Source of the DNA: Sedimentisphaerales bacterium
GTDB taxonomy: Bacteria > Planctomycetota > Phycisphaerae > Sedimentisphaerales > Anaerohalosphaeraceae
Reading direction: 5' to 3'
Assembly: GCA_016926155.1 (NCBI GenBank)
Contig: JAFGPC010000106.1
Span: 1 to 37,848, forward strand
Length of the DNA stretch: 37,848 nt
Part shown: in pieces, positions 3,258-18,802 of the stretch
Position numbering within the stretch: the first letter of the stretch is position 1
Layout: each line of letters begins with the position of its first letter
Position numbers and translations under genes: made by a program
Notes under the pieces: model-generated
What the model saw: only the letters and a program-made list of their open reading frames with translations
Database searches by the model: none
What the model was told of the DNA's origin: nothing

Positions 3258-6200
3258 TTAAGGTCCCATATTCGCCAAAGAACGAATTTCTGCCGGAGTT
3301 AAAGGGAAGTTATAGATTCTGACATCATCAATCAAACCATCAAAATAGTTGCTGTTATAAGTTCCTCCCCATCGTCCAATTGAAAGATCATCTGATAATT
3401 GATCGGGCAGTGAATCAATGTAATCACTGACAAGAGTTACAGCTTCGCCTTCAAAGTAGAAAATTGGTGTCTTTGTGTTACTGTCAAAAACAACTGCTAC
3501 ATGCTGCCAGGAACCGGTCTGTACGTTTATATTTCCAGTTCTTGCATAACCGTTATTGCCGTCTTTTTCTACATCAAGTCGCAACCACGTATTGTATGCA
3601 TTGTAATATTGCAGTGAAAACACAAATTCTTTGTCATTTCCGTCCTTGAGTTTGGTAACAAGTCCGTGGATGTCAGTAACTGTGTCCGGATTAATCCAAG
3701 CTGTGATTGTATAATCTCCTGCTCCGACACTAACTTCTTCACTATCGGATACGGCAATGTAATCATCGGTTCCATCCAGCTCAATAGCACCATACAATTG
3801 CCCTCCAGAGCTTTGCCAAGTGGCGCCATTCACAAGTGTACCATCGTTACCATCCAAACGATCAATTGCTGTCAATCCGGAAGTTTCATCCAACTGCCAG
3901 TGAGCCACGGGTTCATCCAGACCAAGGTCCCAGGGGCCCATACTTGCAAGATGTGAGATATCATCAGCAGTGAGTTCTCGATTGTAAATACGAATATCAT
4001 CCATCAAGCCATCAAAATATCGGGAATTATACGTTGCCGAGCCCCACCGACCAATATTTAACTCATCATCCAATTCATCAGGAAGTGTATCAATGGAATT
4101 ACTTGTTGTTTCAACAACCTGCCCATTATAGTAGAACACGGGTGTTTTACTTGTTGCATTAAACGTTACAGCGACATGCTGCCATTGCCCTGTAATGAAA
4201 TCGATGTTTTCTGATCGGGCGTACTGGTCGTTGCCATCTTTTTCCATGTCCAGCATTAGATAGGTGTCACTTGCTTTCAGGAGTGTAAAAGCAAATTCCT
4301 TGTCATTACCTCCATGGATTTTTACAAGCAATCCGTGATAACCTGTAATTGTATCAGGATTGATCCAGGCACAAAGAGTGTAATCGCCAGCTCCAACACT
4401 AATGGAATCATCATCCGAAACGGAAATATAATCATCCGAACCATCCAATTCAATTGCACCATTTAATTGCCCTTCGGAACTTTGCCAAGTCGGACCATTC
4501 TGAAGTGTACCATCATTATCATTGGAGGTTGAATCATAGGCCGTTCCACCTGTTTCTTCATCCATTTTCCATAGAGCTACCGGATCATCATATTCGTCAG
4601 CTCCAATATCAATGCGACTATTGATCTCACGTTGTAAATTATCGATGTCTGTCTGACCACCTGTACTTTCACTCGGATCACCTACATCAATACATGCTGA
4701 ATCGTATTCAATGTGATAATCCTTATTGGAAGCATCTGTAAACTTAGGGTCGGAGTTGATGTTGTTATTGCCGGTGGCGCTATACCCACCAAACTTTGTA
4801 CCGTTTAAAGCGCCATCGATATCACAATATGTGAAATACGGGTCGGAAGCATCATCAACAATATAGACTTCTCCACCGCTCGAGGACGTATTATCCCAGA
4901 AAATGCTGTTTCTGATGACTGCATCACAGTCACTTTCGAACCGTATTCCTCCACCATTGGTATCAGAACTATTGTCCGTAAACGTACATCCAATAACATT
5001 CGGATCAGCTTCACTATAGCAGTTCATCCCACCACCATAATCGGCGTAGTTACTCACAATCATGCAATTACGAATGGTCGGATTGGAACCACTATCACGA
5101 ACATAGACGCCACCACCCTTATCATCTGTTTTATTATCATAGATCCAGCAATTTTGAACCAGTGGACTTGAATTCTCTCGAATATAGACACCGCCGCCGT
5201 CTTGTGTAATCGCATGATTGTAATAGATATCACATTCTTCAATGGTCGCGTGACTACTGTAGGCACAATGAATCCCGCCGCCATACTCGGCATCGTTGTC
5301 CCGGACCACACACCCATTGATCGTCGCATCGCTGTTGGTTCGGCAATATATACCTCCACCCTTGTCCCCAGCCGTATTGTTAATAATCTCGCATTCCAGG
5401 ATAATAGCATCGCTGTTGTTATAGCAATAGATCCCTCCGCCATCATCTTCGGCCAGATTTCCCGCTATCACACAATGTCGGATCGTCGGGTTGCTCCCGT
5501 TACAATAAATACCACCTCCGTCTCGATCAGGGGACGTTCCAGGCGCCTTACCGTTGGTCAGTGTCATCCCGGCAAGAATGCTGCAGGGATCTTCACTGTC
5601 ATCGAATGACACTACCCGGCCGAGATCCTGGGCATCGATCACAGTCGCATCGATTACTTCCCAGTCGGTCTCCATACTCCCCTGAAGAGTTATGGCTTTT
5701 CCTCCAAAGTCGATACCCTCTTCATAGACACCAGGAAAAACTTCAATTTCATCAAGACTATTGGCGTCGCTGATCGCTTCTCCAATGCTACCAAACCAGT
5801 TAGACCAGGTTTTGTTGACAACGGTCTTTGTGTGAACTGTGGGATGATCCAGAATGGCAGCATATACCGTTATGTCTACATCACTCAAAGTTGCGCTGTT
5901 CCAATTATAAAGGTTGCTTGCGTCAGTCCGTAAGGGATTATGTGCGTATAAATCTCCTCCCACATCATACAAGTAACTAACTGTCCCACTGTATTCGATA
6001 GCAGTCCGATCATAATAGTCAAGCACCTGACAGTTATCGATTTCAATCCCGCCTGGATAGTCAAGTGTCCGATCTCCAATAGGATTTCCCTGGATATCTA
6101 TAGCACGACCGCTGCTTGCAGTGTTTTTGAACAAACAGTTTTTGAAAGTAACAGGGGGAGCTTTATCCGACTTATTGTAAAGACGTGCTCCATACTCAAC

Positions 6201-7226
6201 GTTTTCAACAAGAACATTCTCAAACCAGATTCCTTCATTGGGATCCGAAACATAATTGGGATCATCATAAGCGTAAGATACATTCAAGCCACGTCCTTCA
6301 CCGTTTCCTGTAATATAACAGTCCTGGACAATGACTCGGATCTCCTCTTCGACAAAATCCGACCATTTTGTCAAGCCGATTACTAAACCCTCTCTGCCAT
6401 TATTCTCAAATATGCAATTTGTAATATTTACATTCCAAAGACTGTCACCACTTATAATCTCGGGTTCAATATCAATCCCAGCTTTAGGTAGTGTTCCCAC
6501 GGTATTTTTGAAGACACATCCTTCAATGGTCGTATTTTTAGCACTTTGTATACTCATACCGTTTCTACGGTTGTTATCACAAACTACATCGCGGATGATG
6601 ATATCTGAATTGTATCGAGGATCACTAACTTGATTAGAAGAATTATCATCCCAGTCAGGAAAAACCCACCCAAGATATATACCATCACCTCCACTTTCGC
6701 CTAGTGTCAATCCATAAATACCGATATCACTGCATCCTGCAAAACGAAGCACATGACGAGACTCACCGGTCGTACAGCCAGTGATACGGCACGTTGCTCC
6801 GTATCCCCAGAAGTCAATTCCTTGGCACATTATGGCATGGAATAACGGATTAAAATTATTCTCATCGATAAAATCTCCTTGACCTGCCTGCCCCTGAACT
6901 ACAGTATCAGGATCAAAGATCAAGACTATGTTATTCTTTTTCGATTTGACCTGACTGTCTGAAAGTTCACGATAAAATGTGATCGTATTGGTAACTGTAT
7001 ATGTTCCCTCTTCGATGATGATTGTGTTGGGATCGCTAGGATTTTCTTGTGGATCGGATACTCCCGCCACAAAGATAGCCTTTTGTATCGTTGCAAACGG
7101 CTGGCTTTCTGTTCCGGGATCTCCATCATCCCCATCCGTTGCGACATAGTATGTGATGCCCCCCCATGTTGTACTACATACCAATAGAATCAAAATTACC
7201 CATTGCCCTGTTTTCCATAACTTCAT
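3258..7226 (-). CDS. giant secreted protein: signal peptide + right-handed parallel beta-helix (about 9 GGGIYC-type PbH1 repeats) + two tandem LamG (ConA-like lectin) domains
   Basis: 1322 aa. N-terminal signal peptide MKLWKTGQWVILILLVCSTTWG. About 22-aa periodic repeats ...D.GGGIYC..S.ATI..C.I..N.A... occupy nt ~4860-5600. Two C-terminal ~220-aa LamG-like repeats carry WINPD, IGRWG and FDGL(I/M)DD(V/I)RIYN motifs. AGGAG lies 9 nt before the ATG. The gene has its own terminator. Confidence 0.85.
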   Translation of the reverse strand: MKLWKTGQWVILILLVCSTTWGGITYYVATDGDDGDPGTESQPFATIQKAIFVAGVSDPQENPSDPNTIIIEEGTYTVTNTITFYRELSDSQVKSKKNNIVLIFDPDTVVQGQAGQGDFIDENNFNPLFHAIMCQGIDFWGYGATCRITGCTTGESRHVLRFAGCSDIGIYGLTLGESGGDGIYLGWVFPDWDDNSSNQVSDPRYNSDIIIRDVVCDNNRRNGMSIQSAKNTTIEGCVFKNTVGTLPKAGIDIEPEIISGDSLWNVNITNCIFENNGREGLVIGLTKWSDFVEEEIRVIVQDCYITGNGEGRGLNVSYAYDDPNYVSDPNEGIWFENVLVENVEYGARLYNKSDKAPPVTFKNCLFKNTASSGRAIDIQGNPIGDRTLDYPGGIEIDNCQVLDYYDRTAIEYSGTVSYLYDVGGDLYAHNPLRTDASNLYNWNSATLSDVDITVYAAILDHPTVHTKTVVNKTWSNWFGSIGEAISDANSLDEIEVFPGVYEEGIDFGGKAITLQGSMETDWEVIDATVIDAQDLGRVVSFDDSEDPCSILAGMTLTNGKAPGTSPDRDGGGIYCNGSNPTIRHCVIAGNLAEDDGGGIYCYNNSDAIILECEIINNTAGDKGGGIYCRTNSDATINGCVVRDNDAEYGGGIHCAYSSHATIEECDIYYNHAITQDGGGVYIRENSSPLVQNCWIYDNKTDDKGGGVYVRDSGSNPTIRNCMIVSNYADYGGGMNCYSEADPNVIGCTFTDNSSDTNGGGIRFESDCDAVIRNSIFWDNTSSSGGEVYIVDDASDPYFTYCDIDGALNGTKFGGYSATGNNNINSDPKFTDASNKDYHIEYDSACIDVGDPSESTGGQTDIDNLQREINSRIDIGADEYDDPVALWKMDEETGGTAYDSTSNDNDGTLQNGPTWQSSEGQLNGAIELDGSDDYISVSDDDSISVGAGDYTLCAWINPDTITGYHGLLVKIHGGNDKEFAFTLLKASDTYLMLDMEKDGNDQYARSENIDFITGQWQHVAVTFNATSKTPVFYYNGQVVETTSNSIDTLPDELDDELNIGRWGSATYNSRYFDGLMDDIRIYNRELTADDISHLASMGPWDLGLDEPVAHWQLDETSGLTAIDRLDGNDGTLVNGATWQSSGGQLYGAIELDGTDDYIAVSDSEEVSVGAGDYTITAWINPDTVTDIHGLVTKLKDGNDKEFVFSLQYYNAYNTWLRLDVEKDGNNGYARTGNINVQTGSWQHVAVVFDSNTKTPIFYFEGEAVTLVSDYIDSLPDQLSDDLSIGRWGGTYNSNYFDGLIDDVRIYNFPLTPAEIRSLANMGP
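3261..4590 (-). repeat. intragenic tandem duplication: two diverged LamG-domain coding repeats (~660 bp each, ~55% aa identity)
   Basis: The protein segments PVALWKMDEE...RIYNRELTADDISHLASMGP and PVAHWQLDET...RIYNFPLTPAEIRSLANMGP align end to end. The similarity is visible at DNA level (e.g. catcaatcaaaccatcaaaatag at 3322-3344 / catccatcaagccatcaaaatat at 3997-4019). Confidence 0.6.
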
Positions 7227-7839
7227 GATCTTTCTCCTTTCTGAAATTCCGGTAACTGTTTACAACGAAGTCCCCTGCTTAAAATATCTTTGTCCACATG
7301 ATTGAAAGGGGATAATAGGATGGATGAGGGATTAGTTGCGAAAAGCCTGTTTCTGGAAATGCCCTTGTCTCCTTGGATATTCCTCATACTTCTCTGTTTC
7401 CCTGGTACCCTCTATTAAGTGGATATCTCATTAACTTCCGACTCACAGAATGTCAAGGAAAAAATATATATTTTATATATATAGGCAATATTGTACCAAT
7501 GCCTGTCTGTCCTTAATGTAAGGATACTCACAATTTATACGGATATTGCTTGCGTTTGATGTGCAATTTTACCAGCTAACCATGATGTGCAGAGATGATG
7601 GTCAGCAAGAAACGTTTCCTGAAAGAGGAGCCGGTACGACACCATAATTTTGTAATCATCAGACCTGTTGGAGTATCCGATTAGGGAAGTCTTTACTATT
7701 TTATCAATTGCGAATCATGACCAAACCGCTTGTTCGTCGAAATAAAAACGGTACAATAGCTCCTATTGGGACGCAAGTTGGGTCTGAGCATAGTCGATGC
7801 CAAGGGATAGACAGCGGCAAGTATTGATATGAGGTGCGA

Positions 7840-9948
7840 ATGAGTCTGGAAAGCTTCTTCACCCCCCGATCGGTTGCTATTGTTGGGGCATCACGGACCA
7901 AGGGCAAGGTTGGCTACGAAGTAGTCTCGGCCATGTTACGGGCCGGGTATGAGGGAAAACTGTTTGCCGTCAATCCTTCCACCGATGAAGTCCAGGGTCT
8001 CAAATGTTATCCGGACCTTAAGAGTATCGGTGAATCCCCGGAACTGGTTGTGGTGGTCGTAGCTGCCAAGCATGTCAAATCCGTGATCCAGGATTGTGCC
8101 GATCTTCGGGTCAAAGCGGCTATTATCATCTCTTCCGGCTTCAAGGAGGCCGGATCGCAGGGAGCCCAGCTCGAGCAGGAAATCGTTCGCATCGCCCGCT
8201 CGGCGGGAATGCGGATTATCGGACCCAACTGCATTGGGGTGATGTGTCCAACCAGCAAGCTCAATGCCAGTTTCGGCGGCCAATTGCCTAAGGCTGGGAA
8301 AGTGGGTTATTTTTCTCAATCCGGCTCGATTCTGGCCGCCATGGTGGATATGGCCGGAGCGACCGACATTGGATTCAGTAAGCTGGTCAGCATCGGAAAT
8401 AAGGCCGATGTCAATGAAATGGATGTGATGCGGGCCCTGGGAGAAGATGACAACACCAAAGTGATTGCCGGTTATCTGGAAACCATCAGCGACGGGGACG
8501 CTTTTATACGTCAGGCCGAGCGAATCAGTCGTATCAAGCCCATCCTTCTGCTTAAATCCGGAGTTACCGAGGCCGGCGCTCGTGCTGCAACATCCCATAC
8601 GGGTCGGCTGGCCGAATCGGAAAATGCTTATGAATGTGTGTTTGAGCGAGCCGGTGTAGTTCGCTGCCCTTCGATTAAAGCCCAGTTTGACTATGCCCGT
8701 GCCTTTGCCTACGATCCGGTACCCACCGGGCCTCGTGTAGCTGTAATTGCCAATGCCGGCGGTGCCGGAATCATGGCTACCGATGCCATCGAGAGAGAGG
8801 GTCTAAAACTGGCAAGCTTTACCGAGCAAACCCTTCAGAAACTCTGTAACGCCAAAGAACTGGCCGGAGTGGCTAATGTCGACAATCCCATTGATTTACT
8901 GGGGGATGCCCTGGCCAACCGTTATGAATTTGCCTTGCATGCAGCACTCGACGATCCGAACGTAGACACTGTATTGGTATTATTGAGCCCCCACGCCATG
9001 ACTGAGGTTCTGGAGACGGCCAAGGCGGTAGTCCGTGTTGCCAAGGAAAAGGATGAAAAACCCGTTCTGACCTGTTTTTTGGGGGCTTCAAGGATCTATG
9101 AGGCCAGCGAAATCTTGCGAAAGGGGCGAATTCCTCAATATGACTCTCCGGAAAGCGCTGTCGGCACCATCAAGGTAATGGCTCACTATTCCCAATGGAG
9201 GTCCCGGCCCAAGCGGGTTGTCAAGCTGTTCAGCGTCAATCGTCACAAGGCCGAGCGGATTATCGAGCGGCGACTGCGACAAAACGTACTGGAACTCGGA
9301 GAGGCTGAAACCAAAGAGATTCTGGAAGCGTATGGCTTTGTCACTCCGCGTGGTGAGATTGCTACAACTGTCGAGCAGGCCGTCAATATTGCCAACTATA
9401 TTGGTTATCCGGTCGTCTTGAAGATCTGGTCTCCCGATATCATTCACAAGACAGATATCGGTGGTGTAAAAACGGATTTGCGGACCGATCAGGAAGTGAT
9501 GGATGCTTTCGATTTGATGATGTACCGTATTCCGAAGAAGGCTCCTGACGCCGATATCATCGGTATCAGTGTCGAAGAGATGGTTGACAAGGGACGCGAG
9601 GTGATTCTGGGGATGAATCGTGATCCTCGATTTGGACCATTGATGATGTTTGGAATGGGCGGAAGATTGGTGGAAGTATTGGAAGATGTGGTGTTTTATC
9701 CCGCACCTCTGACGGCTGCCGAGGCCAAGGAAATGCTGGTTCGAACCAAAACATACGACCTTCTAAGCGGTGCCCGGGGTGAGGAAGGGGTGGATATCGA
9801 TGTGATCGCCGAGGGCCTCCAGCGGCTCAGCCAACTTGTGACCGAGTTTCCGCAAATCAAAGAAATCGATATTAATCCTTACGTCGTCGGACGGGAGGGA
9901 ACCACTCCCATCGCCGTTGACGCCATGATGACATTGGAAAAGGCATAA
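7840..9948 (+). CDS. acetyl-CoA synthetase (ADP-forming), fused alpha/beta (NDP-forming acyl-CoA synthetase family)
   Basis: About 703 aa. The N-terminal CoA-binding Rossmann motif is SVAIVGAS...GYEV. It has succinyl-CoA-synthetase-like ligase-CoA domains and a C-terminal ATP-grasp (VVLKIWSPDIIHKTDIGGVK). Likely ATG at 7840, with GAGG 5 nt upstream. The ORF track starts at GTG 7834. Confidence 0.8.
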   Translation: MSLESFFTPRSVAIVGASRTKGKVGYEVVSAMLRAGYEGKLFAVNPSTDEVQGLKCYPDLKSIGESPELVVVVVAAKHVKSVIQDCADLRVKAAIIISSGFKEAGSQGAQLEQEIVRIARSAGMRIIGPNCIGVMCPTSKLNASFGGQLPKAGKVGYFSQSGSILAAMVDMAGATDIGFSKLVSIGNKADVNEMDVMRALGEDDNTKVIAGYLETISDGDAFIRQAERISRIKPILLLKSGVTEAGARAATSHTGRLAESENAYECVFERAGVVRCPSIKAQFDYARAFAYDPVPTGPRVAVIANAGGAGIMATDAIEREGLKLASFTEQTLQKLCNAKELAGVANVDNPIDLLGDALANRYEFALHAALDDPNVDTVLVLLSPHAMTEVLETAKAVVRVAKEKDEKPVLTCFLGASRIYEASEILRKGRIPQYDSPESAVGTIKVMAHYSQWRSRPKRVVKLFSVNRHKAERIIERRLRQNVLELGEAETKEILEAYGFVTPRGEIATTVEQAVNIANYIGYPVVLKIWSPDIIHKTDIGGVKTDLRTDQEVMDAFDLMMYRIPKKAPDADIIGISVEEMVDKGREVILGMNRDPRFGPLMMFGMGGRLVEVLEDVVFYPAPLTAAEAKEMLVRTKTYDLLSGARGEEGVDIDVIAEGLQRLSQLVTEFPQIKEIDINPYVVGREGTTPIAVDAMMTLEKA

Positions 9949-10016
9949 AAAAAACCGATATGCTCCCGGCGGTAGAATGATTTTTCTTCTGCTGGTTGTT
10001 CATGGAGGGCACAGAT

Positions 10017-11888
10017 ATGCATGAATTTGATTGGAAAGACAAATATAAAGAGCTGATCGGTACGGCACCGGAAGCGATGAGGCGGATTAAGCCGGGAGAC
10101 AGTATCTTCATCGGTACCGGGTGCGGACAACCGCAGCATTTGGTCGATTCGCTGGTCAAACATGGCGGACATATCTACGATGCGCATGTGGTGCACTTGT
10201 TAACGATGGGCGCTGCACCGTATGCCCGGCAGGAGTTTCGCGAAAAATTCAAGATGAACACTTTTTTCGTTGCGGAAAACGTGCGTGATGCCCTGGAACA
10301 GGGCATTGGCGATTACACGCCGGTTTTTTTAAGCAATATCCCGCAACTGTTCGAAACCGGCCGGGTAACGATCGATGTGGCGATGATTACCGTTACGCCG
10401 CCGGATATCAATGGGCTCTGTAGCCTTGGCGTATCGGTGGACATTGTAAAATCAGCCGCCGCGAACGCCAAATTCGTCATTGCACAGGTTAATACCGGAA
10501 TGCCGCGAACCCTGGGGAATTGCTTTCTACATGTGAATTCTATTGATATGCTGGTGCCTTATGATGAGCCGATTATTATGGTTGAGCCGCCCACGACCAA
10601 TGACGTGCTTCGAAAAATCGGACAGAATCTGGCCCGGCTGGTCGAGGACGGCAGCACGATCGAGTGTGGCATTGGGAGAATTCCTCAGGCGATGGCTGAG
10701 TATCTCCATGATAAAAAGGAACTTGGCGTACATACCGAGATGTTCGGAGACTGGATCATTGAATTGATCGAATGCGGCGCGGTTACCTGTTCCAAAAAGA
10801 CAATCAACAACGGCAAGATCGTTGCCAGTTTTTGCATGGGTTCCCAGGCCTTGTATGACTACATTGATAATAATCCGTTGTTCGAATTCCATCCGACTGA
10901 GTATGTCAATGATCCGTTTATCATCGCCCAGCACGATAAAATGGTGGGCATCAATGTCGGTCTGGAGATCGATTTAACCGGTCAGGTTTGTGCCGATTCA
11001 CTGGGCTATCGTTTCTATAGCGGCATTGGCGGCCAGGTCGATTTTATTCGAGGCTGTGCGCGAAGCAGGGGAGGCAAACCCATCATTGCAATGCCTTCCA
11101 CGGCCAAAGGTGACACAATTAGCCGAATCGTGCCAAGGTTGACTGAAGGGGCGGGCGTGGTGACGACACGGGGAGATGTGCATTATGTCGTTACCGAATA
11201 CGGAATTGCCTACCTGCACGGAAAGAGCATTCGCGAGCGTGTACTGTCTTTGATTAACATTGCTCACCCCAAGTTCCGCAAGGAGTTAATCCAGGCTGCC
11301 AAGGCACAGCGTTATATCCAACCCGATCAGATCGAACTGGAATGGGATAAGGTCCACTACCCCGAGGAATTGGAACGATACGAAACACTGCGGGACGGTA
11401 CGGAAATTTTCTTTCGTCCCGTCAAGCCCACCGATGAAGCGGCCCTGTCGGAAATGCTGTATTCGCTTTCTCGTGAATCGGTGAAGAGGCGATACTTTAC
11501 GCACACCAAGACCTTTCCGCACAAGGATGTCCAGAAGCTGACCAATGTGGATTATGAACAGAACCTGGCGATTGTCGGAGTGGTTCCGGGAGCGGCGTAT
11601 GGAGAGGAAATCGTGGCGATTGCGCAATACTTCCTCGATCCAAAGACGCAGGTGGCCGAGGTGGCATTTATCGTGCAGGATGAATGGCAGGATAAGGGCA
11701 TGGGAAGCTACTTACTGGACTATATTACGGACATCGCCAAGAGCCGGGGTGTCAAACGGTTCTATGCCACAGTTTTGCCGATGAATCGGGCAATGCTGCA
11801 AATCTTCTACAACAGCGGTTACTCGGTCAATACGGAGTTTGACGGTGAAGCGTATTCGATCACATATGGCCTGGACAGAAAATCCTGA
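10017..11888 (+). CDS. bifunctional acetyl-CoA hydrolase/transferase family domain fused to C-terminal GNAT acetyltransferase domain
   Basis: N-terminal ~480 aa match the acetyl-CoA hydrolase/CoA-transferase family (Ach1/Cat1/ScpC-like): GDSIFIGTGCGQPQHL, GSQALYDYIDNNP, MPSTAKGDTISRIVP. C-terminal ~150 aa form a GNAT fold (VAFIVQDEWQDKGMGSYLLDYI...). Likely ATG at 10017, with GGAGGG 7 nt upstream. The track starts at TTG 9996. Confidence 0.8.
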   Translation: MHEFDWKDKYKELIGTAPEAMRRIKPGDSIFIGTGCGQPQHLVDSLVKHGGHIYDAHVVHLLTMGAAPYARQEFREKFKMNTFFVAENVRDALEQGIGDYTPVFLSNIPQLFETGRVTIDVAMITVTPPDINGLCSLGVSVDIVKSAAANAKFVIAQVNTGMPRTLGNCFLHVNSIDMLVPYDEPIIMVEPPTTNDVLRKIGQNLARLVEDGSTIECGIGRIPQAMAEYLHDKKELGVHTEMFGDWIIELIECGAVTCSKKTINNGKIVASFCMGSQALYDYIDNNPLFEFHPTEYVNDPFIIAQHDKMVGINVGLEIDLTGQVCADSLGYRFYSGIGGQVDFIRGCARSRGGKPIIAMPSTAKGDTISRIVPRLTEGAGVVTTRGDVHYVVTEYGIAYLHGKSIRERVLSLINIAHPKFRKELIQAAKAQRYIQPDQIELEWDKVHYPEELERYETLRDGTEIFFRPVKPTDEAALSEMLYSLSRESVKRRYFTHTKTFPHKDVQKLTNVDYEQNLAIVGVVPGAAYGEEIVAIAQYFLDPKTQVAEVAFIVQDEWQDKGMGSYLLDYITDIAKSRGVKRFYATVLPMNRAMLQIFYNSGYSVNTEFDGEAYSITYGLDRKS

Positions 11889-11994
11889 ACGATTTTTTTC
11901 TGGCGTTGCGCGGCTATTAACGATTGTCTGGTTACTCAATTTTTTGTTGATAGCTATGGCGGGATGCAATATGACAAATGAGAATAGGCAAAAA

Positions 11995-12771
11995 ATGAGC
12001 CGACCGACAAAAGGCAAATCAATTCGTGTGGCCATGTGTCAGATTTTCTGTCTCTCCGGCGATCGATCGGGTAATTTTATCCGCATTGAAAATGCCCTGC
12101 AGGATGCTGCCCGGGCCGGGGCGCAAATCGCCTGTTTTCCCGAAACATCGATTCTCGGCTGGGTTTATAGTGATGCCCATCAACGTGCATATCCTATACC
12201 CGGACAAGACTCCGATCGTCTTTGTGCCCTGGCGAAACAATATAAGCTCTATATATGTATTGGCCTGGCGGAGAAAAACGGTGTCAACCTGCACGATTCG
12301 GCCATTTTGATCGATCCGGCAGGAAACCTTCTACTCAAACATCAGAAAATGAATATTCTAACGGAGTTGATGAATCCCCCTTATACTCCGGGCGGCCAGG
12401 TTGCATCTGTCGATACCGAACTGGGACGAATCGGGCTGCTGATTTGTGCGGACACCTTTCGGACGGATGTACTGGACGCCATGGCCGAACAAAAACCCGA
12501 TCTGGTACTTGTACCCTATGGTTGGGCGGCCCCCGAAGAAAACTGGCCAGAGCATGGAAAAGAACTTCATTCTGTTGTACAATCAGCAGCTCGAAGAATC
12601 GGCGTCCCGGTCATCGGGGTAGATCTGGTTGGGCAGATTACCCGCGGACCGTGGCGGGATCGGGTATACGGGGGGCAAAGTATTATGATCGATGCATCGG
12701 GGTGCGTCCTGGCTGTGGCTGTGGATCGTGACCGCGATATTGTTGTTGCGGATGTGCCGATAAAAGATTAA
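11995..12771 (+). CDS. carbon-nitrogen hydrolase family amidase (nitrilase superfamily; N-carbamoylputrescine-amidase-like)
   Basis: IRVAMCQIF...ACFPETS places the catalytic Glu in context. LLICAD is the catalytic Cys motif. The start is ambiguous. ATG 11995 (MSRPTKGKSIRVAM) gives a typical cytoplasmic CN-hydrolase N-terminus. The longer track ORF (11839) overlaps the upstream gene and adds a hydrophobic, lipobox-like LIAMAGC segment. Confidence 0.7.
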   Translation: MSRPTKGKSIRVAMCQIFCLSGDRSGNFIRIENALQDAARAGAQIACFPETSILGWVYSDAHQRAYPIPGQDSDRLCALAKQYKLYICIGLAEKNGVNLHDSAILIDPAGNLLLKHQKMNILTELMNPPYTPGGQVASVDTELGRIGLLICADTFRTDVLDAMAEQKPDLVLVPYGWAAPEENWPEHGKELHSVVQSAARRIGVPVIGVDLVGQITRGPWRDRVYGGQSIMIDASGCVLAVAVDRDRDIVVADVPIKD

Positions 12772-12853
12772 TTTGGGCAAAGAATTTTGGGGTACATCGG
12801 AAACTTTCATTGTATTGTGTTTCCGACTTCAAGATGCAGGAGAAAGAGGAATT

Positions 12854-14116
12854 ATGAAGACAATTAATCGTCGAGCTTTTATAAAGACCGCTGTCGCAGG
12901 AGGAATCCTGGGAGCAGCAGGGCCGACCCGTTCGGCGTTCGGTTTGGGATACCCGATTGGAGATAAGAGTAAAGAGGATATCGGTTCGTCAATCGAGGCA
13001 CTTCTTCAGGGAAAAAGCGATGCCAAGATTAAGAGCATAGAAAGTTTCACGGATAAAGAGGCGAACAATCTTAGCTTTGTCCGTGTCGTGACCGAGGATG
13101 GGACCGAGGGATGGGGGCAGATGGCTCCGTTCAACGCCGATATTTCTGCAATCGTCCTGCATCGAAATGTTGCCCCGCTTGTGATTGGAAAAGATCCCTA
13201 TGATTTTGGAGGCATTTCCGATCTAGTCCGGGATCGCAATCTCAAATACCCCTGGTCTTATGTGTGCCGTGCGTTGTCCGGTCTGGATACGGCCTTGTGG
13301 GACCTCCGGGGAAAACAAGAAAACAAGAGTATTTGTGAACTGCTGGGTGGTACTCCTGGCGCAATACCTGTGTATGGTTCCAGTATGAGCCGCAAGATAA
13401 CAGCCGAGGAAGAAGCGCGTCGGATGGTGGCTTTGCGGGAAAGCCATGGATTTCGTGCATTCAAAATCCGTATTGGCTCCGAGGCCGGCCACAATCAGGA
13501 TGCCTGGCCCGGCCGGACCGAAGAGATTGTCCCGACCGTGCGAAAGGCACTGGGCGAGGATGTCGGCCTGATGGTCGACGCCAATAGTTGCTATACTATC
13601 GAAAAAGCCATTGAAGTGGGCAAGATGCTTGAAAAGAACAAGGTTATCCATTTTGAGGAACCTTGCCCCTATTGGGAGTTCGAATGGGCTTCCAAGGTCA
13701 ACAAGGCCCTGAAAGTGCCAGTCACCGGCGGTGAGCAGAATAACGATCCGGCCCAGTGGCAGCGGATCCTAAACGCCAAGGCCTATGATATCATTCAGCC
13801 GGACGTGTGTTATCTGGGGGGATTGACGCGAACATTACGTGTCGTGGCGATGGCACACAAAGCCAAGGTGCCCGTTGTGCCGCACTCTGCAAACTTATCA
13901 CTGGTGACCGTATTTGCCCTGCATCTGATGGGTGCAATCCCCAATGCCGGACCGCATGTGGAATATACGATTGAGAGCAACCCCTGGACGCGCGAGTTGT
14001 ATCAGCCGGTGCTCAAGGTACGGGACGGAAAAGTCGCCGTTCCCAACAATCCGGGCTGGGGCGTGGTCCTGAACAAGACCTGGCTGGAAAACGCCCAGCA
14101 CCAGATCACAGCATAG
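12854..14116 (+). CDS. Tat-signal enolase-superfamily enzyme (mandelate racemase / muconate lactonizing enzyme family dehydratase)
   Basis: Twin-arginine motif NRRAFIKTAVAGG directly after Met at 12854, with a GAAAGAGGA RBS. MR/MLE signatures present: KIRIG, MVDANSCYT, IHFEEP, TGGEQ, IIQPDVCYLGG. Confidence 0.8.
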   Translation: MKTINRRAFIKTAVAGGILGAAGPTRSAFGLGYPIGDKSKEDIGSSIEALLQGKSDAKIKSIESFTDKEANNLSFVRVVTEDGTEGWGQMAPFNADISAIVLHRNVAPLVIGKDPYDFGGISDLVRDRNLKYPWSYVCRALSGLDTALWDLRGKQENKSICELLGGTPGAIPVYGSSMSRKITAEEEARRMVALRESHGFRAFKIRIGSEAGHNQDAWPGRTEEIVPTVRKALGEDVGLMVDANSCYTIEKAIEVGKMLEKNKVIHFEEPCPYWEFEWASKVNKALKVPVTGGEQNNDPAQWQRILNAKAYDIIQPDVCYLGGLTRTLRVVAMAHKAKVPVVPHSANLSLVTVFALHLMGAIPNAGPHVEYTIESNPWTRELYQPVLKVRDGKVAVPNNPGWGVVLNKTWLENAQHQITA

Positions 14117-14136
14117 CCAAAAGTATTTGAAATCTG

Positions 14137-15267
14137 ATGACACAAAAAGCATTTATATATAGTCCTGAACTTGAGGCGTATCCGTATCCGCCCTCATGTC
14201 CTTTTAATACCTCGCGAGCTGGTAAGGCGCGTGCGATACTGACCTCAATGGGACTGTTGATCGGGGATGATAAAATAGAAGTTGCGCCTCCTCCCGCTAC
14301 AAGGGAGGTCTTGGAAACATTCCATACGCCGGAATATCTGGATGCTTTGGAACGATTGAATCGGGGCGAGTATGATTCGGAAATGCTTTACTTTGGCCTG
14401 GGTACGGGCGATTGTCCGGCCTTCAAAGGAGTATGGGACTATTCGGTCCTGGCCTGTGGGGCGTCCGTGCTGGGGGCCGAATGGATTGTGCAGGGAAAGG
14501 CTTCAGTAGCGTTTAATCCATCCGGCGGGCTGCATCACGCCTTTCCGGATCGAGCGGCGGGATTCTGTTATCTCAACGATGTCGTTCTTGGCTGCGAGAC
14601 GCTGGCCAAAGGAAACAAACGAGTCGTTTTTCTCGATATCGATGTGCATCATACGGACGGCGTACAGGCAGCCTTCTATGATCGAAACGATGTGATGACC
14701 ATCTCACTACATCAGGATGGCCGGACACTCTTTCCCGGTACCGGATTTGTAGAAGAAATCGGTGAGGGGGAAGGGAAAGGATATGCCATCAATATTCCTT
14801 TACCGATGGGCACGTATGATGAAGCCTATCTGCGGGCGGTTCGCCAGGTTGTGCTTCCCTTGATTCATGCGTTCGGGCCGGATGTCCTTGCTCTGGAGAT
14901 CGGGGCAGATACCCTATCCGGCGATCCACTGGCAAACCTGAGCCTGACCAACAACGTAATCGCCGATGTCATCGGCCTTCTGCGGGCCTTTGGAAAGCCG
15001 ATCCTTGCCACGGGTGGTGGGGGCTACCATGTCGATAATACGGCCCGGGCATGGGCTCTGGCTTGGACGGCCTTGTGCGGGGAAGATGCCGGCGCTGATG
15101 CGGCGGCTGGATTAGGCGGAGTGATGCTTGAAACGGCAGACTGGCATGGGGGATTGCGAGATCGCGTACTGGCTCCCAGCGAAGCCCAGAAATGCAGCGT
15201 CGATCAAATTCTGAATATCACACTGGACAGTGTTAAAAAGCTGGTTTTTCCCCACCATGGGCTGTAA
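14137..15267 (+). CDS. acuC: AcuC-type deacetylase (histone deacetylase / acetoin utilization protein family; arginase-deacetylase fold)
   Basis: 376 aa. FIYSP...PFN, GGLHHAFPDRAAGFCYLNDVV and LDIDVHHTDGVQAAFYDRNDVMTISLHQDGRTLFPGTGFVEEIGEGEGKGYAINIPL align closely with B. subtilis AcuC. Confidence 0.85.
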   Translation: MTQKAFIYSPELEAYPYPPSCPFNTSRAGKARAILTSMGLLIGDDKIEVAPPPATREVLETFHTPEYLDALERLNRGEYDSEMLYFGLGTGDCPAFKGVWDYSVLACGASVLGAEWIVQGKASVAFNPSGGLHHAFPDRAAGFCYLNDVVLGCETLAKGNKRVVFLDIDVHHTDGVQAAFYDRNDVMTISLHQDGRTLFPGTGFVEEIGEGEGKGYAINIPLPMGTYDEAYLRAVRQVVLPLIHAFGPDVLALEIGADTLSGDPLANLSLTNNVIADVIGLLRAFGKPILATGGGGYHVDNTARAWALAWTALCGEDAGADAAAGLGGVMLETADWHGGLRDRVLAPSEAQKCSVDQILNITLDSVKKLVFPHHGL

Positions 15268-15272
15268 AAAAA

Positions 15273-15306
15273 GAGCGATCCGGAAACTGAAGTTTCCGGA
15301 TCGCTC
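15273..15306. terminator. perfect 15-bp stem / 4-nt loop hairpin between convergent operons; a strong intrinsic terminator for the minus-strand MFS-acs operon, possibly bidirectional
   Basis: GAGCGATCCGGAAAC-TGAA-GTTTCCGGATCGCTC. On the plus strand it is preceded by AAAAAAA (15265-15272), which reads as a T7 tract after the stem on the minus strand. It lies 93 nt after the MFS stop and 6 nt after the acuC stop. Confidence 0.6.
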
Positions 15307-15398
15307 GTCATTGCCTCCAACTTCGACACAATTGTCGTTCCTCACGATCCAACGACTTCCCTGTCATTCGAACCGTGCTTTCCCCTAAGCTGGATTTA

Positions 15399-16748
15399 CT
15401 ATTGCTCTTCCTTGGCTTGTGCATTTAATTCCGGCTGAGGATTTATTGGTTGTACGGCGATACCCGTTGTGTGAAGGGGTCTTAATCCCATTGAAATAAC
15501 GGCCGCCACAAGGCAGGCGATGCCACAAGGGATAAACGCCCACATCCACAATTGCTTATCGCCCATAATGCCGCCAAGAATCGGACCGACCACACCGCCG
15601 ACACCATAAGCCATAAAGACCCATGGATAATTGGTTCCAACATTTTTATTGCCGAAATAATCGGCTGTGGCAGCCGGAAAGAGAGCAAAGTTTCCACCAA
15701 AATTGAAACCAATAATCGCGGCTCCGATATATAAACCGATTTCATTGCCACCGATGAAGTAGAAAACAATCATCATAATGCCCTGCGCGGCGCTCATGAG
15801 GATAATAGCATTCTTTCGGCCGGTTTTGTCCGAGATGGCACCCCATGCAATACGGCCTATGCCGTTAAGCAGGGCATAAAACAAGCCCATTGCGGTTCCG
15901 GCAATGGTTTTTGCAGCCGCTTCTTCGATGCCCCCCTGAGTCAGAGATTCTACACCGAACAAACGGATAATTCCAATGACCATCAATCCTGCCATGCCAC
16001 CTGCCGTAAAGGTCAAGAACAGAATCCAGAATTGCGGAGTTCTTACCATCTCTTTTTCGGTGAGATTAATGCCTCCTGTGCTTGCGGCATGGGCTGCCTC
16101 CGGAGGAACCCACCCTTTTGGCTGCCAGCCATCCGGTGGATTGACCATAAACATAGCCCCAAGAATAACCAGGATGGCAAAGAGAATCCCGTACAAGATA
16201 AAGACTTTGCTGATAGTCCAGCCCATTCCGTATAGACCTTCCCAGCCTGGAGTCAGATTGACGGGACCAAATTTAAAACCGCCGGTCAGTTTGATCCAGA
16301 TCAGGGCTCCAAAACCAAAGCCTGCAACGGCCAGCCCGGTGATAAGGCCCTTCTTATCCGGGAACCATTTGACCAGGGCCGCAATCGGGCATACATATCC
16401 CAAGCCGATTCCGGCTCCTCCGAGGATGCCGACACCAATCAGGATGCCCCAGAAGTTATATCCGGACAAGCCGGCTAGAACATAGCCTAGTCCAAGAACA
16501 AGACCCCCTGTTATGGCAACCTTTTTAGGGCCGACTTTCTTCTGCCACTTACCGGCAATCAAAGCCATAACCACCGCAAACGTCAGCAAGCCGACAGAAA
16601 AAATGACTTGTGTATGCCATTTTTCATAACCGGCTTCGGTCAATTTGTTTGTAAACGCCGACCAGGCATAGATGGCGCCAAGACAGAGCTGGATGAGAAT
16701 ACCGCCGACAACCACGAGCCATCGGTTCATGACCTTTTGTTCCGACAT
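15399..16748 (-). CDS. MFS transporter, oxalate/formate antiporter (OFA)-like family; probable monocarboxylate (acetate?) transporter
   Basis: 449 aa, about 12 predicted TM segments. The N-terminus RWLVVVGGILIQLCLGAIYAWSAF is typical of the OFA family. It sits 74 nt downstream of acs in the same orientation. Confidence 0.8.
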   Translation of the reverse strand: MSEQKVMNRWLVVVGGILIQLCLGAIYAWSAFTNKLTEAGYEKWHTQVIFSVGLLTFAVVMALIAGKWQKKVGPKKVAITGGLVLGLGYVLAGLSGYNFWGILIGVGILGGAGIGLGYVCPIAALVKWFPDKKGLITGLAVAGFGFGALIWIKLTGGFKFGPVNLTPGWEGLYGMGWTISKVFILYGILFAILVILGAMFMVNPPDGWQPKGWVPPEAAHAASTGGINLTEKEMVRTPQFWILFLTFTAGGMAGLMVIGIIRLFGVESLTQGGIEEAAAKTIAGTAMGLFYALLNGIGRIAWGAISDKTGRKNAIILMSAAQGIMMIVFYFIGGNEIGLYIGAAIIGFNFGGNFALFPAATADYFGNKNVGTNYPWVFMAYGVGGVVGPILGGIMGDKQLWMWAFIPCGIACLVAAVISMGLRPLHTTGIAVQPINPQPELNAQAKEEQ

Positions 16749-16822: not shown

Positions 16823-18802
16823 TTATCCGCGGCCTGCGATGAGCTTCTCGACGACACTCGGATCGGCCAGCGTGGTGATATCGCCCAGGTTGCCTGTATC
16901 CTTCTCGGCAATCTTGCGCAAGATTCGACGCATGATCTTGCCCGAACGAGTCTTGGGCAGCGACGGAGCAAACTGAATCGCTTCCGGAGCGGCGATCGGG
17001 CCAATTTCCTTACGGACGTGCATGATCAATTCTTTCTTGAGAGCATCGCTTTCCTCGACGCCATCGACCAGAGTGACATAGGCATACAGACCCTGTCCCT
17101 TGATCTCGTGCGGGATCGGTGTGACAGCGGCCTCGGCGACCTTGGCATGGCTGACCAGGGCACTTTCCACCTCAGCGGTTCCGATACGGTGACCGGAGAC
17201 ATTGACTACATCGTCAATCCGACCCATCAGCCAATGATCGCCGTCTTCGTCGACCCGGCAACCGTCACCCGTGAAATACATGTTGTCGAACATCGTGAAA
17301 TACGTGTCGATAAAACGGTCATGATCGCCCCACATCGTACGCATCATACCGGGCCAGGGTTTGCGGATACACAGCTTGCCGCCTTCATTGACATTACATA
17401 CCGAAGCATCATCCCGCAGCACTATGGTGTCTACTCCGAAGAACTGCTTACAGGCGCTTCCGGGCTTAAGCGTATGGGCGCCCGGCAACGGAGTGACTAA
17501 GATCCCGCCGGTTTCGGTCTGCCACCATGTATCCACGATCGGGCATTTGCTGTGTCCGACCTTTTCATAGTACCATATCCAGGCTTCGGGATTGATTGGC
17601 TCGCCCACCGTGCCCAAAATCCGCAGGGAATCGAGCTTGTACTTGGTTACCCACTCGTCACCCAGACGCATCAGGGCGCGAATCGCCGTGGGAGCCGTAT
17701 AGAAAACGGTGACCTTGAACTTGTCGCAAATATGCCAGAAGCGTCCGGCATCCGGATAGGTCGGGACGCCTTCGAACATCAGACTTGTGGCGCCGTTGGC
17801 CAATGGGCCGTAAACGATATAGCTATGTCCTGTCACCCAGCCGATATCGGCAGTGCACCAGTAGATATCATCGTCGTGAATATTAAAAATATGCTTGTGC
17901 GACAGCGAGGTATGCATCAGGTAGCCGGCTGTGGTGTGGACCACGCCCTTGGGCTTTCCTGTCGAGCCGGAGGTGTACAGGATGAACAGCGGATCTTCGG
18001 CGTTCATATGCTCGGGTTCGCAGTCGGCGCTGGCCTTGGCCATCTCGTCATGATACCAGAAATCCCGACCGTCTATCATATCGCAGGGTTCAGTGTTGAC
18101 CTTCGTCACGATGACGCTTTCGATGGTCGGGCAATCGGCCAGGGCCTCGTCGGCGATCTTTTTGAGAAGGATGTGCTTGCCGGCCCGAAGAGACACGTTG
18201 GAGGTAATCAGCATCTTACAATCGGAATCGTTGACACGGCCCTTGATCGCGTCGGCGCTGAAACCGCCAAAAATGATCGAATGAATCGCTCCGATTCGAG
18301 TGCAGGCCATCATCACAATAGCCAGTTCGGGTACCATTGGCATATAAATAGCCACGCGGTCGCCCTTGCGGATGCCCTTGCCCTTGAGCACATTGGCAAA
18401 TTTGCAGACCTCTGTGTGCATTTCTTTATAGGTAAACTTCTTAACCGCATCCTCGGCCTCACCCTGCCAGAGGATGGCGACCTTGTTCTCAATAGGAGTG
18501 CCCAGATGACGATCCAGACAGTTGTACGAAACGTTCAGCTCACCATCGGCAAACCAGGTATGTTCGATCTTCCGGGCCTTGGTGTCCCAGGTATATTCCA
18601 GACTCTTGGTTGGTTCCTTGAACCAGGTCAGCGTCTTGGCCTGTTCCAGCCAGAAAGCATCCGGGTCGTTGATCGACTTTTCCCACATTTCCTTGTACTG
18701 CTGCTCGCTGTTAATCCAGGCATTCGACTGCACGTTGGTAGGCGGGGGAAACTTACGGCCTTCAACCATGAGCGATTGCATTCCTTTGTTTTGTTCTGCC
18801 AT
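16823..18802 (-). CDS. acs: acetyl-CoA synthetase (AMP-forming)
   Basis: 659 aa. Canonical Acs N-terminus (NSEQQYKEMWEKSINDPDAFW) and AMP-binding motif YTSGSTGKPKG. The conserved acetylatable Lys sits in the PKTRSGKIMRR context. GAGGTG lies 8 nt before the ATG. Confidence 0.92.
   Translation of the reverse strand: MAEQNKGMQSLMVEGRKFPPPTNVQSNAWINSEQQYKEMWEKSINDPDAFWLEQAKTLTWFKEPTKSLEYTWDTKARKIEHTWFADGELNVSYNCLDRHLGTPIENKVAILWQGEAEDAVKKFTYKEMHTEVCKFANVLKGKGIRKGDRVAIYMPMVPELAIVMMACTRIGAIHSIIFGGFSADAIKGRVNDSDCKMLITSNVSLRAGKHILLKKIADEALADCPTIESVIVTKVNTEPCDMIDGRDFWYHDEMAKASADCEPEHMNAEDPLFILYTSGSTGKPKGVVHTTAGYLMHTSLSHKHIFNIHDDDIYWCTADIGWVTGHSYIVYGPLANGATSLMFEGVPTYPDAGRFWHICDKFKVTVFYTAPTAIRALMRLGDEWVTKYKLDSLRILGTVGEPINPEAWIWYYEKVGHSKCPIVDTWWQTETGGILVTPLPGAHTLKPGSACKQFFGVDTIVLRDDASVCNVNEGGKLCIRKPWPGMMRTMWGDHDRFIDTYFTMFDNMYFTGDGCRVDEDGDHWLMGRIDDVVNVSGHRIGTAEVESALVSHAKVAEAAVTPIPHEIKGQGLYAYVTLVDGVEESDALKKELIMHVRKEIGPIAAPEAIQFAPSLPKTRSGKIMRRILRKIAEKDTGNLGDITTLADPSVVEKLIAGRG

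Follow-up and report, generated by a model that had tools for sequence, protein, structure and literature searches.

A CoA-transferase–GNAT fusion in a conserved acetate-metabolism cluster: a candidate protein-acetylation switch

A 37,848-nucleotide stretch of DNA from a Sedimentisphaerales bacterium (contig JAFGPC010000106.1; hereafter the window) encodes a 623-residue protein in which a CoA-transferase is fused to a GNAT acetyltransferase domain. The fusion is a real protein and sits in a conserved acetate-metabolism cluster, which together give it the look of an undescribed bacterial and archaeal protein-acetylation switch. The conserved context, comprising an ADP-forming acyl/acetyl-CoA synthetase (ACD), an HDAC-family deacetylase and an AMP-forming acetyl-CoA synthetase (Acs), points to reversible protein acetylation acting on acetate metabolism. 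Our preferred reading, at slightly better than even confidence, makes the fusion the writer in an acetylation switch directed at Acs, in which a live CoA-transferase would replace the dead synthetase-like regulatory domain of Pat.

The fusion protein and its two modules

The fusion (MBN1125222.1, P0001) is encoded at 10017..11888 on the forward strand and was delineated from the ORF list, Pfam, protein clusters and PDB alignments. It lies within a single stop-free ORF (9996..11888, +), so the two domains share one reading frame with no frameshift, as originally predicted. The annotated ATG at 10017 has a candidate ribosome-binding site, GGAGG, 8 nt upstream. Pfam places AcetylCoA_hydro at residues 21-190 (3.9e-27), AcetylCoA_hyd_C at residues 275-428 (1.1e-67) and Acetyltransf_1 at residues 515-595 (4.3e-09). 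Alignments to solved structures set the limits of the CoA-transferase module at residues ~5-430 (10029..11306, +) and those of the GNAT module at ~447-619 (11355..11873, +). Since these alignments end at ~430 and ~447, the junction falls at nucleotides ~11307-11354 (+). This gap between the two alignments corresponds to a linker of residues 431-446, which is less conserved (0.46 across 78 aligned fusions). The two-domain layout of the original prediction was thus correct, but its sizes of ~480 and ~150 residues become about 430 and 175, and the junction that it had put at 11380-11450 lay slightly too far 3'. An AlphaFold2 model, built from a 32-sequence alignment 76-88% identical to the query, reached a pLDDT of 56.9 and a pTM of 0.44 and is unusable for inter-domain geometry.

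The same fusion recurs widely in other genomes, where the original prediction had proposed to look for it. The query is matched over its full length by 120 or more protein clusters (76-100% identity), and tblastn located the same full-length fusion at no fewer than 594 genome loci. These are distributed over more than a dozen phyla of bacteria and two lineages of archaea, and nearly all of the hosts are uncultured. In one related cluster, a single contig carries a 432-residue and a 195-residue protein, which shows that split or frameshifted forms occur, as would be expected had a sequencing or assembly error joined two genes. The ORF is, however, unbroken in the window, in 78 genomes that were assembled independently and span many phyla, and across the full-length clusters. 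This refutes a sequencing artefact, to which we assign practically no probability. In the databases, the fusion proteins go by no more specific name than “GNAT family N-acetyltransferase” or “acyl-CoA hydrolase”, and the best-scoring matches of similarity searches are saturated by fusions. Looking up the window's protein by exact match yielded no record.

On sequence grounds, the N-terminal module is an AbfT/Cat2-type (4-hydroxybutyrate/butyryl) family-I CoA-transferase. It aligns to PDB entries 9vag (4.2e-131), 3gk7 (2.5e-116) and 3eh7, and both CoA-transferase domains are present (PF02550, 96 bits; PF13336, 227 bits). Glu241 (codon 10737-10739) aligns to Glu238 of 3gk7, which we take to be the catalytic residue of AbfT, and hence Glu241 here. 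Residues 338-343 form a GGQVDF sequence matching the GXGG(Q/F)xDF oxyanion motif. Glu241 and GGQxD are invariant in 78 of 78 aligned fusions and the phenylalanine of the motif is present in 77. The CoA-transferase is apparently active, judging from these residues. It does not reach the cut-off of the butyryl-CoA:acetate CoA-transferase equivalog TIGR03948 (280.1 bits vs 674.8). The original prediction had placed this module in the Ach1/Cat1/ScpC (YgfH) subfamily. That assignment was rejected in favor of the AbfT/Cat2 type: TIGR03458 and NF053853 score 105.6 bits vs 658.7 and 84.7 vs 500, with the C-terminal half alone aligning, and the AarC and Ach1-type enzymes in the PDB match the module at merely 1e-9 to 1e-15.

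The GNAT identity of the C-terminal region held up, with Acetyltransf_1 scoring 37.1 bits vs a cut-off of 20.7. Structural alignments assign it as a Pat-type GNAT, a predicted lysine acetyltransferase. Its nearest solved structures are E. coli PatZ (9it0, 1.3e-22) and Streptomyces lividans PatA (SlPatA; 4nxy, 2e-21), which align over the whole domain, followed by MtPat (4ava, 2e-11); the best NCBIfam model for the region is mycobacterial Pat. A YP..LE N-terminal extension of the GNAT is common to PatZ and SlPatA. In PatZ, E809 is catalytic, and R754 and F756 of the gating motif are required for activity (PMC12184503). Glu548 of the fusion (codon 11658-11660) aligns to PatZ E809 and SlPatA E123 and is kept in 76 of 78 fusions, the other two having aspartate. 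The equivalent of R754 is R492, kept in all 78, and that of F756 is F494, which is phenylalanine in 40 and methionine in 34. The P-loop Q558-D-K-G561-M-G563 aligns to the PatZ G822-G824 loop, with Q558 conserved in 77/78, G561 in 75/78 and G563 in 77/78. Stand-alone relatives of the GNAT (P0137, P0139 and P0145) are found on contigs of ~1 kb, too short to show their gene neighborhoods.

The conserved gene cluster

Immediately upstream of the fusion gene, the window encodes a 704-residue fused alpha-beta ACD (7834..9948, +), identified from Pfam (CoA_binding_2, Succ_CoA_lig, Ligase_CoA_2 and ATP-grasp_5) and the PDB. In 52 of 69 loci, the fusion gene is directly preceded by an ACD gene of the same orientation; the gap between them has a median of ~50 bp and can be as short as 5 bp. 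The protein matches 8wzu at 1.7e-154 and 4xyl at 3e-100, and PatZ at just 7e-91 (PatZ residues 5-685). The phosphohistidine motif SHTG is found at residues 254-257, and its histidine is retained in 59 of 60 partner ACDs. By these comparisons the ACD is nearer to true ADP-forming ligases than it is to PatZ, and it appears catalytically intact. Loci lacking an ACD (L063, L064, L077, L083 and L085) revealed no alternative conserved partner. Their neighbors are unrelated and include an FAD oxidase, NFACT, MTTB, a P-type ATPase, a Na/H exchanger and UPF0261. More distant fusions (~50% identity), archaeal ones included, are also without conserved neighbors.

The prominence of the ACD raises the alternative that the system is primarily metabolic. 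The CoA-transferase would convert acyl-CoA and acetate to the acid and acetyl-CoA, and the co-transcribed ACD would convert acetyl-CoA, ADP and Pi to acetate and ATP, in a cycle analogous to that of ASCT and succinyl-CoA synthetase. The GNAT would then be a secondary add-on, tuning flux by acetylating the ACD, the transferase itself or Acs. This fits an ACD that is by far the most conserved neighbor, often near-abutting, with its phosphohistidine kept and its affinity to true ligases, and also a CoA-transferase module that has an invariant active site and is better conserved than the GNAT module across the 78 fusions. We nevertheless consider a primarily metabolic role rather unlikely. It leaves unexplained why a Pat-type GNAT with intact catalytic residues is maintained across the hundreds of loci, and it does not account for the recurrent linkage to HDAC and Acs genes or for a three-part fusion described below.

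The same pair of genes could also be viewed as Pat in pieces. Here the adjacent ACD would be an in-trans regulatory and substrate-shaping partner of the GNAT, comparable to the in-cis domain of PatZ, and the operon would represent the ancestral state of type I Pat. An ACD followed by a GNAT is also the arrangement of domains within PatZ, the ACD can be aligned to PatZ residues 5-685, the two genes are tightly coupled, and the YP..LE extension is shared by the GNAT, PatZ and SlPatA. We regard this arrangement as highly improbable, as the ACD is apparently intact and nearer to true ligases, and ~25% of the loci have no ACD neighbor.

Downstream of the fusion, the window encodes a 376-residue class-I-type zinc deacetylase (Hist_deacetyl, Pfam 2.9e-80; 14137..15267, +), a putative eraser. 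It matches Rpd3, HDAC8, HDAC2 and Aquifex HDLP in the PDB, all at ~1e-64 to 1e-67. HDLP, which is of the class-I type like the cluster HDAC, is a protein deacetylase (PMC8556138). An HDAC gene is present in 20 of the 35 loci with full flanks, and is directly 3' of the fusion in 16 of 60. One metagenomic protein, P0241, combines the CoA-transferase, GNAT and HDAC in one ORF, a fusion of putative writer and eraser. On the reverse strand, the window contains a 659-residue AMP-forming Acs (16823..18802, -; TIGR02188, 982 bits vs 725), the putative target. It carries the acetylation motif PKTRSGK622IMRRILRK, with the canonical PKTRSGKIMRRILRK motif, and the SGK lysine is kept in all 27 neighboring Acs genes. 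An AMP-forming Acs lies within 10 kb of the fusion in 16 of the 35 loci with full flanks. Between the HDAC and Acs genes is an SfMCT-type monocarboxylate (lactate-family) MFS transporter (15399..16748, -; NCBIfam NF049980, 342.6 bits vs 320), which accompanies Acs in several loci. The window therefore contains the ACD, fusion, HDAC, transporter and Acs together, and in it a candidate writer and eraser are linked to an Acs bearing the target lysine. Both the Pat-type nature of the GNAT and this conserved context go beyond the original prediction.

Two further genes separate the fusion from the HDAC. A carbon-nitrogen hydrolase gene (11839..12771, +; Pfam CN_hydrolase, 1.4e-35) probably has its real start 3' of 11888. 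The second, identified by profile matches, encodes an enolase-superfamily (MR_MLE) acid-sugar dehydratase-like protein (12773..14116, +). Both are lineage-specific insertions, seen only in the window and in loci L008 and L009. A sequence scan located a hairpin with a 15-bp stem (15273..15306) between the convergent HDAC and MFS transporter genes, which is likely the terminator and the end of the operon. A promoter scan over 7000-19900 yielded 16 matches vs 14.6 in shuffled sequence, i.e. no enrichment.

A proposed acetylation switch and its alternatives

The original prediction had put forward two functions for the fusion, substrate channelling and sensing of acyl-CoA levels, and both stand as candidates. 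From the domain identities, intact catalytic residues, wide distribution and gene linkage, we infer a target, a direction of regulation and a role for the CoA-transferase. In the proposed switch, the Pat-type GNAT most likely acetylates the conserved active-site lysine K622 of the neighboring Acs, the counterpart of K609, and may also act on other proteins, the co-transcribed ACD among them. Removal of the acetyl mark would fall to the class-I-type HDAC of the cluster. Bacterial regulatory-domain KATs have Acs as their common target, and the regulatory domain of PatZ binds acetyl-CoA and gates its GNAT (PMC12184503). The CoA-transferase module occupies the position held in Pat/PatZ by a catalytically dead NDP-forming synthetase-like domain, and would make the activity of the acetyltransferase depend on the cell's acyl-CoA/carboxylate state. 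This coupling could run through formation of a CoA thioester and domain closure, through equilibration of acyl-CoA pools at the enzyme, or both. Co-expression with the ACD would supply the physiological rationale: Acs would be off while the ACD turns acetyl-CoA into acetate and ATP, and an ATP-wasting futile cycle between ACD and Acs would be avoided. Several considerations count against the switch. Acs is within 10 kb at under half of the loci, and the more divergent fusions, with the archaeal ones, show no conserved neighbors. It is the ACD that is linked most strongly, and a metabolic partnership between ACD and CoA-transferase, or the ACD as target, would fit equally well. Finally, a pure sensor domain would not need a CoA-transferase that appears catalytically intact.

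The intact active sites of both modules suggest a further alternative, in which the CoA-transferase supplies the donor in cis. Right beside the GNAT, it would make acyl-CoA from free acetate or from another free carboxylate, for example lactate, butyrate or 4-hydroxybutyrate, and lysine acylation would directly follow carboxylate availability. The protein would in effect merge the two members of the E. coli lactylation pair, in which the CoA-transferase YdiF makes lactyl-CoA for the GNAT YiaC (PMC9636275), and it agrees with the SfMCT-type lactate/monocarboxylate transporter in the cluster and with the 4-hydroxybutyrate/butyrate subfamily of the transferase. However, CoA-transferases release free acyl-CoA, with no known tunnel or interface, the Pat-type GNATs characterized so far draw on the general pool of acetyl- or propionyl-CoA, and the HDAC-type eraser and Acs motif fit ordinary acetylation. 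Channelling in the fusion is thus distinctly unlikely in our view. We also entertain, as an unlikely proposition, a self-contained “carboxylate-to-lysine” machine, in which a short-chain acid would be converted to its CoA thioester and transferred by the GNAT to Acs, the ACD or other proteins, to be erased by the HDAC. A related possibility is that the operon of ACD and CoA-transferase–GNAT was an evolutionary precursor of type I Pat.

Relation to known systems and implications

The published classification of these acetyltransferases (types I-V) contains no CoA-transferase–GNAT architecture, and a literature search for such a fusion found nothing relevant. With type I Pat/PatZ/YfiQ from E. 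coli and Salmonella, the fusion shares the GNAT subfamily, the catalytic Glu, the Arg/Phe gating motif, the P-loop, a large N-terminal domain that is predicted here to bind CoA thioesters, and a link to the control of Acs. Pfam detected no CoA_binding, Succ_CoA_lig or ATP-grasp_5 domain in the fusion polypeptide, which therefore falls outside types I and II. Its N-terminus has an unrelated fold, that of a ~430-residue family-I CoA-transferase with catalytic residues, whereas the synthetase-like domain of Pat has lost the catalytic His (PMC8556138). The true ACD in the window is instead a separate gene just 5' of the fusion.

In its arrangement, a non-synthetase N-terminus followed by a Pat-type GNAT, the fusion corresponds to the type III (class I-beta) KATs MtPat/MsPat, MaPatB and MxKat. 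The effector domains in those proteins are small ligand binders, for cAMP in MtPat/MsPat, an ACT domain in MaPatB and NADP+ in MxKat (PMC6456759), but the N-terminus of the fusion is a full enzyme whose active site appears intact. Pfam found no cAMP, ACT or NADP+ effector domain in the fusion (types per PMC6456759, PMC12184503). Full-length homology, the catalytic Glu and GGQxDF relate its N-terminal module to AbfT/Cat2 and butyryl-CoA:acetate CoA-transferase (3gk7, 3eh7, 9vag), yet the enzymes known so far stand alone, at ~430-450 residues.

The B. subtilis acsA/acuABC system similarly clusters a writer of the GNAT family and an eraser of the HDAC family, the class-I deacetylase AcuC, with an oppositely oriented Acs bearing the target lysine. 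Acs is divergent there but convergent in the window. AcuA differs in being GNAT-only (type IV) and from another subfamily, the B. subtilis system has neither a CoA-transferase nor an ACD, and AcuB is absent from the window cluster. The E. coli YdiF and YiaC pair also has a family-I CoA-transferase supplying the acyl-CoA that a GNAT places on lysines (PMC9636275), although as two separate, unlinked proteins of other subfamilies. Literature searches for acetylation of ADP-forming ACS found nothing.

The regulatory-domain KAT architectures currently recognized are few, namely synthetase-like domains and binders of cAMP, ACT or NADP+. If the proposed switch is correct, the fusion would extend this list by a widespread architecture whose “regulatory” module is an apparently active acyl-CoA enzyme in its own right, hard-wired to an ACD and often also to an HDAC-type eraser and Acs. 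The system bears on how anaerobes avoid futile cycling between acetate formation by ACD and activation by Acs, on whether a CoA-transferase can serve to sense acyl-CoA/carboxylate ratios, and on how Pat-type enzymes came by their regulatory domains. Should the “carboxylate-to-lysine” reading hold, protein acylation would directly report the levels of fermentation products.

Fusion protein and distribution

A single uninterrupted ORF occupies 9996..11888 on the plus strand of the window, with GGAGG lying 8 nt upstream of the ATG start codon at 10017. It encodes a 623-residue protein (P0001, MBN1125222.1), deposited from the Sedimentisphaerales MAG as 'GNAT family N-acetyltransferase'. Pfam places AcetylCoA_hydro at residues 21-190, AcetylCoA_hyd_C at 275-428 and Acetyltransf_1 at 515-595. 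Alignments to solved structures delimit a CoA-transferase module (~5-430) and a GNAT module (~447-619), and the junction therefore falls at nt ~11307-11354. The uninterrupted frame bears out the original prediction of two domains fused in one ORF; the anticipated sizes of 480 and 150 residues are revised to ~430 and ~175. An AlphaFold prediction was of low quality (pLDDT 57) and gives no usable inter-domain geometry.

The same architecture, which the original prediction had proposed seeking in other genomes, was found at full length in at least 120 protein clusters (76-100% identity) and was confirmed at no fewer than 594 loci when each species was represented by a single genome. These numbers refute the explanation that an error joined separate genes, to which we give practically no weight. 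The scanned loci come from Planctomycetota, Lentisphaerota, Chloroflexota, Acidobacteriota, Myxococcota, Fibrobacterota, Thermodesulfobacteriota, Verrucomicrobiota, Deinococcota, WOR-3, Hydrogenedentes, Eisenbacteria and Delongbacteria, and from the archaeal Thermoplasmata and Methanobacteriota. Locus analyses used the 80 best-matching of the at least 594 loci, a sample biased toward closer relatives; all 80 derive from uncultured sources (MAGs and one single-cell assembly). The fusion is a real, widespread and uncharacterised protein. In one cluster (P0011), it appears as two products, P0279 (432 aa) and P0281 (195 aa), on one 48.6-kb JGI contig, the result of natural splitting or else of a frameshift.

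CoA-transferase and GNAT modules

The N-terminal module matches the PDB entries 9vag (4e-131), 3eh7 (2e-122) and 3gk7 (2.5e-116), which identifies it, at the level of sequence, as an AbfT/Cat2-type family-I CoA-transferase. The Ach1/Cat1/ScpC subfamily originally proposed is ruled out, with scores of 105.6 against a cut-off of 658.7 for TIGR03458 and 84.7 against 500 for NF053853. The module also misses the butyryl-CoA:acetate CoA-transferase equivalog cut-off (280 against 674.8 bits), and we therefore assign no acid substrate. The motif GVHTEM contains Glu241, whose counterpart in 3gk7 is residue 238, which we take to be the catalytic glutamate of AbfT; the GGQVDF motif is retained. Among 78 aligned full-length fusions (50-83% identity), E241, H239 and G338-G339-Q340-x-D342 are conserved in every sequence and F343 in 77. 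In a separate alignment of 32 close homologues, T34-G-C-x-Q-P (residues 34-39, window 10116-10133) and G33 are invariant; the corresponding site of AbfT (3gk7) reads A-H31-C-V-A-E-P. His31 is presumably implicated in 4-hydroxybutyrate binding, and if this role holds, the acid substrate of the fusion probably differs from that of AbfT.

The top PDB match of the C-terminal module is E. coli PatZ (9it0, 1.3e-22), with further matches to the GNAT domain of S. lividans PatA (4nxy, 4u5y; 2e-21) and to M. tuberculosis Pat (4ava; 2e-11). Together with the Acetyltransf_1 match, this agrees with the GNAT identity first proposed, and the homology indicates a Pat-type GNAT. E548 aligns with PatZ E809 and SlPatA E123, R492-Y-F494 with PatZ R754-Y-F756, and Q558xxG561xG563 with the P-loop. 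Alanine mutants of PatZ R754, F756 or E809 have strongly reduced activity (PMC12184503). In the 78 fusions, R492 is conserved throughout, E548 in 76 (Asp in the other two), and the P-loop residues Q558, G561 and G563 in 77, 75 and 77, respectively. The share of sequences that carry the window residue lies mostly at 0.6-0.9 across the transferase and at 0.5-0.65 across the GNAT module, the transferase being the better conserved. Since the catalytic residues are kept, both modules look catalytically competent. A doubtful alternative is that the transferase supplies the acyl donor in cis, equivalent to YdiF and YiaC (PMC9636275) joined in one protein, possibly for non-acetyl acylation.

A search of 1.84 billion representative proteins, with residues 436-623 as the query, returned 4,204 matches at E <= 1e-10. 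Many of the nearest are ~600-660-aa proteins matched at ~440-620, and Pfam found CoA-transferase domains in seven of ten matches of varied length (P0126, P0183, P0166, P0174, P0175, P0129 and P0206). Several shorter matches proved on inspection to be truncated versions of this architecture. More distant relatives include type II Pats (P0211) and a receiver-domain-GNAT protein (P0195). In P0166 (960 aa), a 4Fe-4S dicluster region precedes the CoA-transferase-GNAT portion, which hints at redox input in some members. P0241 (1,013 aa, L086:6001-9042), known from one 22.9-kb metagenomic contig, carries CoA-transferase, GNAT and Hist_deacetyl domains in one ORF, a putative writer and eraser within a single polypeptide.

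Gene neighborhood

The fusion gene (10017-11888, +) follows a gene for an ADP-forming acetyl-CoA synthetase (ACD; 7834-9948, +) with an SHTG phosphohistidine motif, whose similarity to genuine ADP-forming ligases (8wzu, 1.7e-154) exceeds that to PatZ (7e-91). Downstream on the same strand lie a CN-hydrolase gene (ending at 12771), an acid-sugar dehydratase-like enolase-superfamily gene (12773-14116) and a class-I-type Zn deacetylase gene (HDAC; 14137-15267), whose best PDB matches are Rpd3, HDAC8 and Aquifex HDLP. Convergent to these is an SfMCT-type monocarboxylate transporter gene of the MFS (15399-16748, -); an AMP-forming acetyl-CoA synthetase gene (Acs; 16823-18802, -; TIGR02188 982 bits against 725) contains PKTRSGK622IMRRILRK. 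Between the HDAC and MFS genes, a strong hairpin (15273-15306; perfect 15-bp stem, nine GC pairs) is likely a bidirectional terminator.

Across the best 80 loci, a same-strand ACD lies directly upstream of the fusion in 52 of the 69 with room for one, at a median gap of ~50 bp (minimum 5 bp). Of the 35 loci with at least 8 kb available on both sides, 26 had ACD, 20 HDAC, 16 Acs and 9 an MFS transporter. The phosphohistidine is kept in 59/60 partner ACDs and the SGK lysine in 27/27 neighboring Acs genes. The order ACD, fusion, HDAC recurs in independent metagenomic loci of Lentisphaerae and Latescibacteria, and L004 has Acs and an MFS transporter upstream. Among these 80 of at least 594 loci, the CN-hydrolase/enolase-like pair (11839-14116) is confined to the window and two close relatives, L008 and L009, and is a lineage-specific insertion. 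Inspection of the neighbors of distant members without ACD found unrelated genes. The Pat-type GNAT is joined to an intact AbfT-type CoA-transferase and genetically coupled to ACD, and frequently to an HDAC-type deacetylase and an Acs with a canonical acetylation site. We regard as unlikely a CoA-transferase/ACD cycle of mainly metabolic purpose to which the GNAT is an accessory; that ACD is a Pat-like regulatory subunit acting in trans, or represents an ancestor of type I Pat, is quite improbable.

Upstream of ACD in two Lentisphaerae loci (L001:2322-3407, L002:272-1357) is an AAA_26 and DRTGG gene, for which a PTA_PTB domain was not reported. It resembles what we take to be the regulatory N-terminal portion of class II phosphotransacetylase, and may be another acetate-node regulator. 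Elsewhere, the window encodes a small RimI-like GNAT (1589-2080), large beta-helix/Laminin_G_3 (3258-7226, -) and PKD/Laminin_G_3 (30234-32171, +) proteins, and two tandem PspA/IM30 paralogs (32558-33241 and 33330-34007), followed by two ORFs without a Pfam match (34022-34699 and 34696-36696). Large Laminin_G_3 proteins of such kinds are typical of polysaccharide-degrading Planctomycetota. In parts of 32558-36696, A is in strong excess over T (AT skew up to 0.29).

Proposed function and known systems

We favor, with slightly better than even confidence, a role for the fusion as the writer of an HDAC-erased Acs acetylation switch, with the transferase as regulatory module. The GNAT would place an inactivating acetyl mark on Acs, which HDAC would remove; ACD may be an additional target. 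Co-expressed with ACD, the writer would turn Acs off while ACD makes acetate and ATP, so that a futile ACD/Acs cycle would be avoided. The CoA-transferase would stand in for the acetyl-CoA-sensing regulatory domain of Pat. Family-I CoA-transferases go through a covalent glutamyl-CoA intermediate, and the module could therefore, speculatively, report the acyl-CoA/carboxylate ratio. In PatZ, acetyl-CoA bound to the regulatory domain both gates the GNAT and contributes to the shape of the Acs pocket (PMC12184503). The synthetase-like domain of Pat lacks the catalytic His (PMC8556138), whereas the CoA-transferase of the fusion keeps its catalytic residues.

Prokaryotic GNAT lysine acetyltransferases have been sorted, in reviews and in the 2025 structural study of PatZ, into types I-V, with regulatory domains that are NDP-forming synthetase-like or bind cAMP, ACT or NADP+; a CoA-transferase domain is absent from the classifications in these papers (PMC6456759, PMC8556138, PMC12184503). 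A full-text literature search found no paper on the fusion, an absence that is not proof of absence. By architecture it matches type III (class I-beta), but its N-terminal module is not a known effector domain; predicted to work like Pat, it nevertheless falls outside the type I/II definition. A Pat-like switch on Acs would be already familiar logic underneath. For the protein-acetylation field, the family is notable for a 'regulatory' module that would be a live enzyme, its tight coupling to ACD and a putative writer-eraser fusion, all of which are directly testable.
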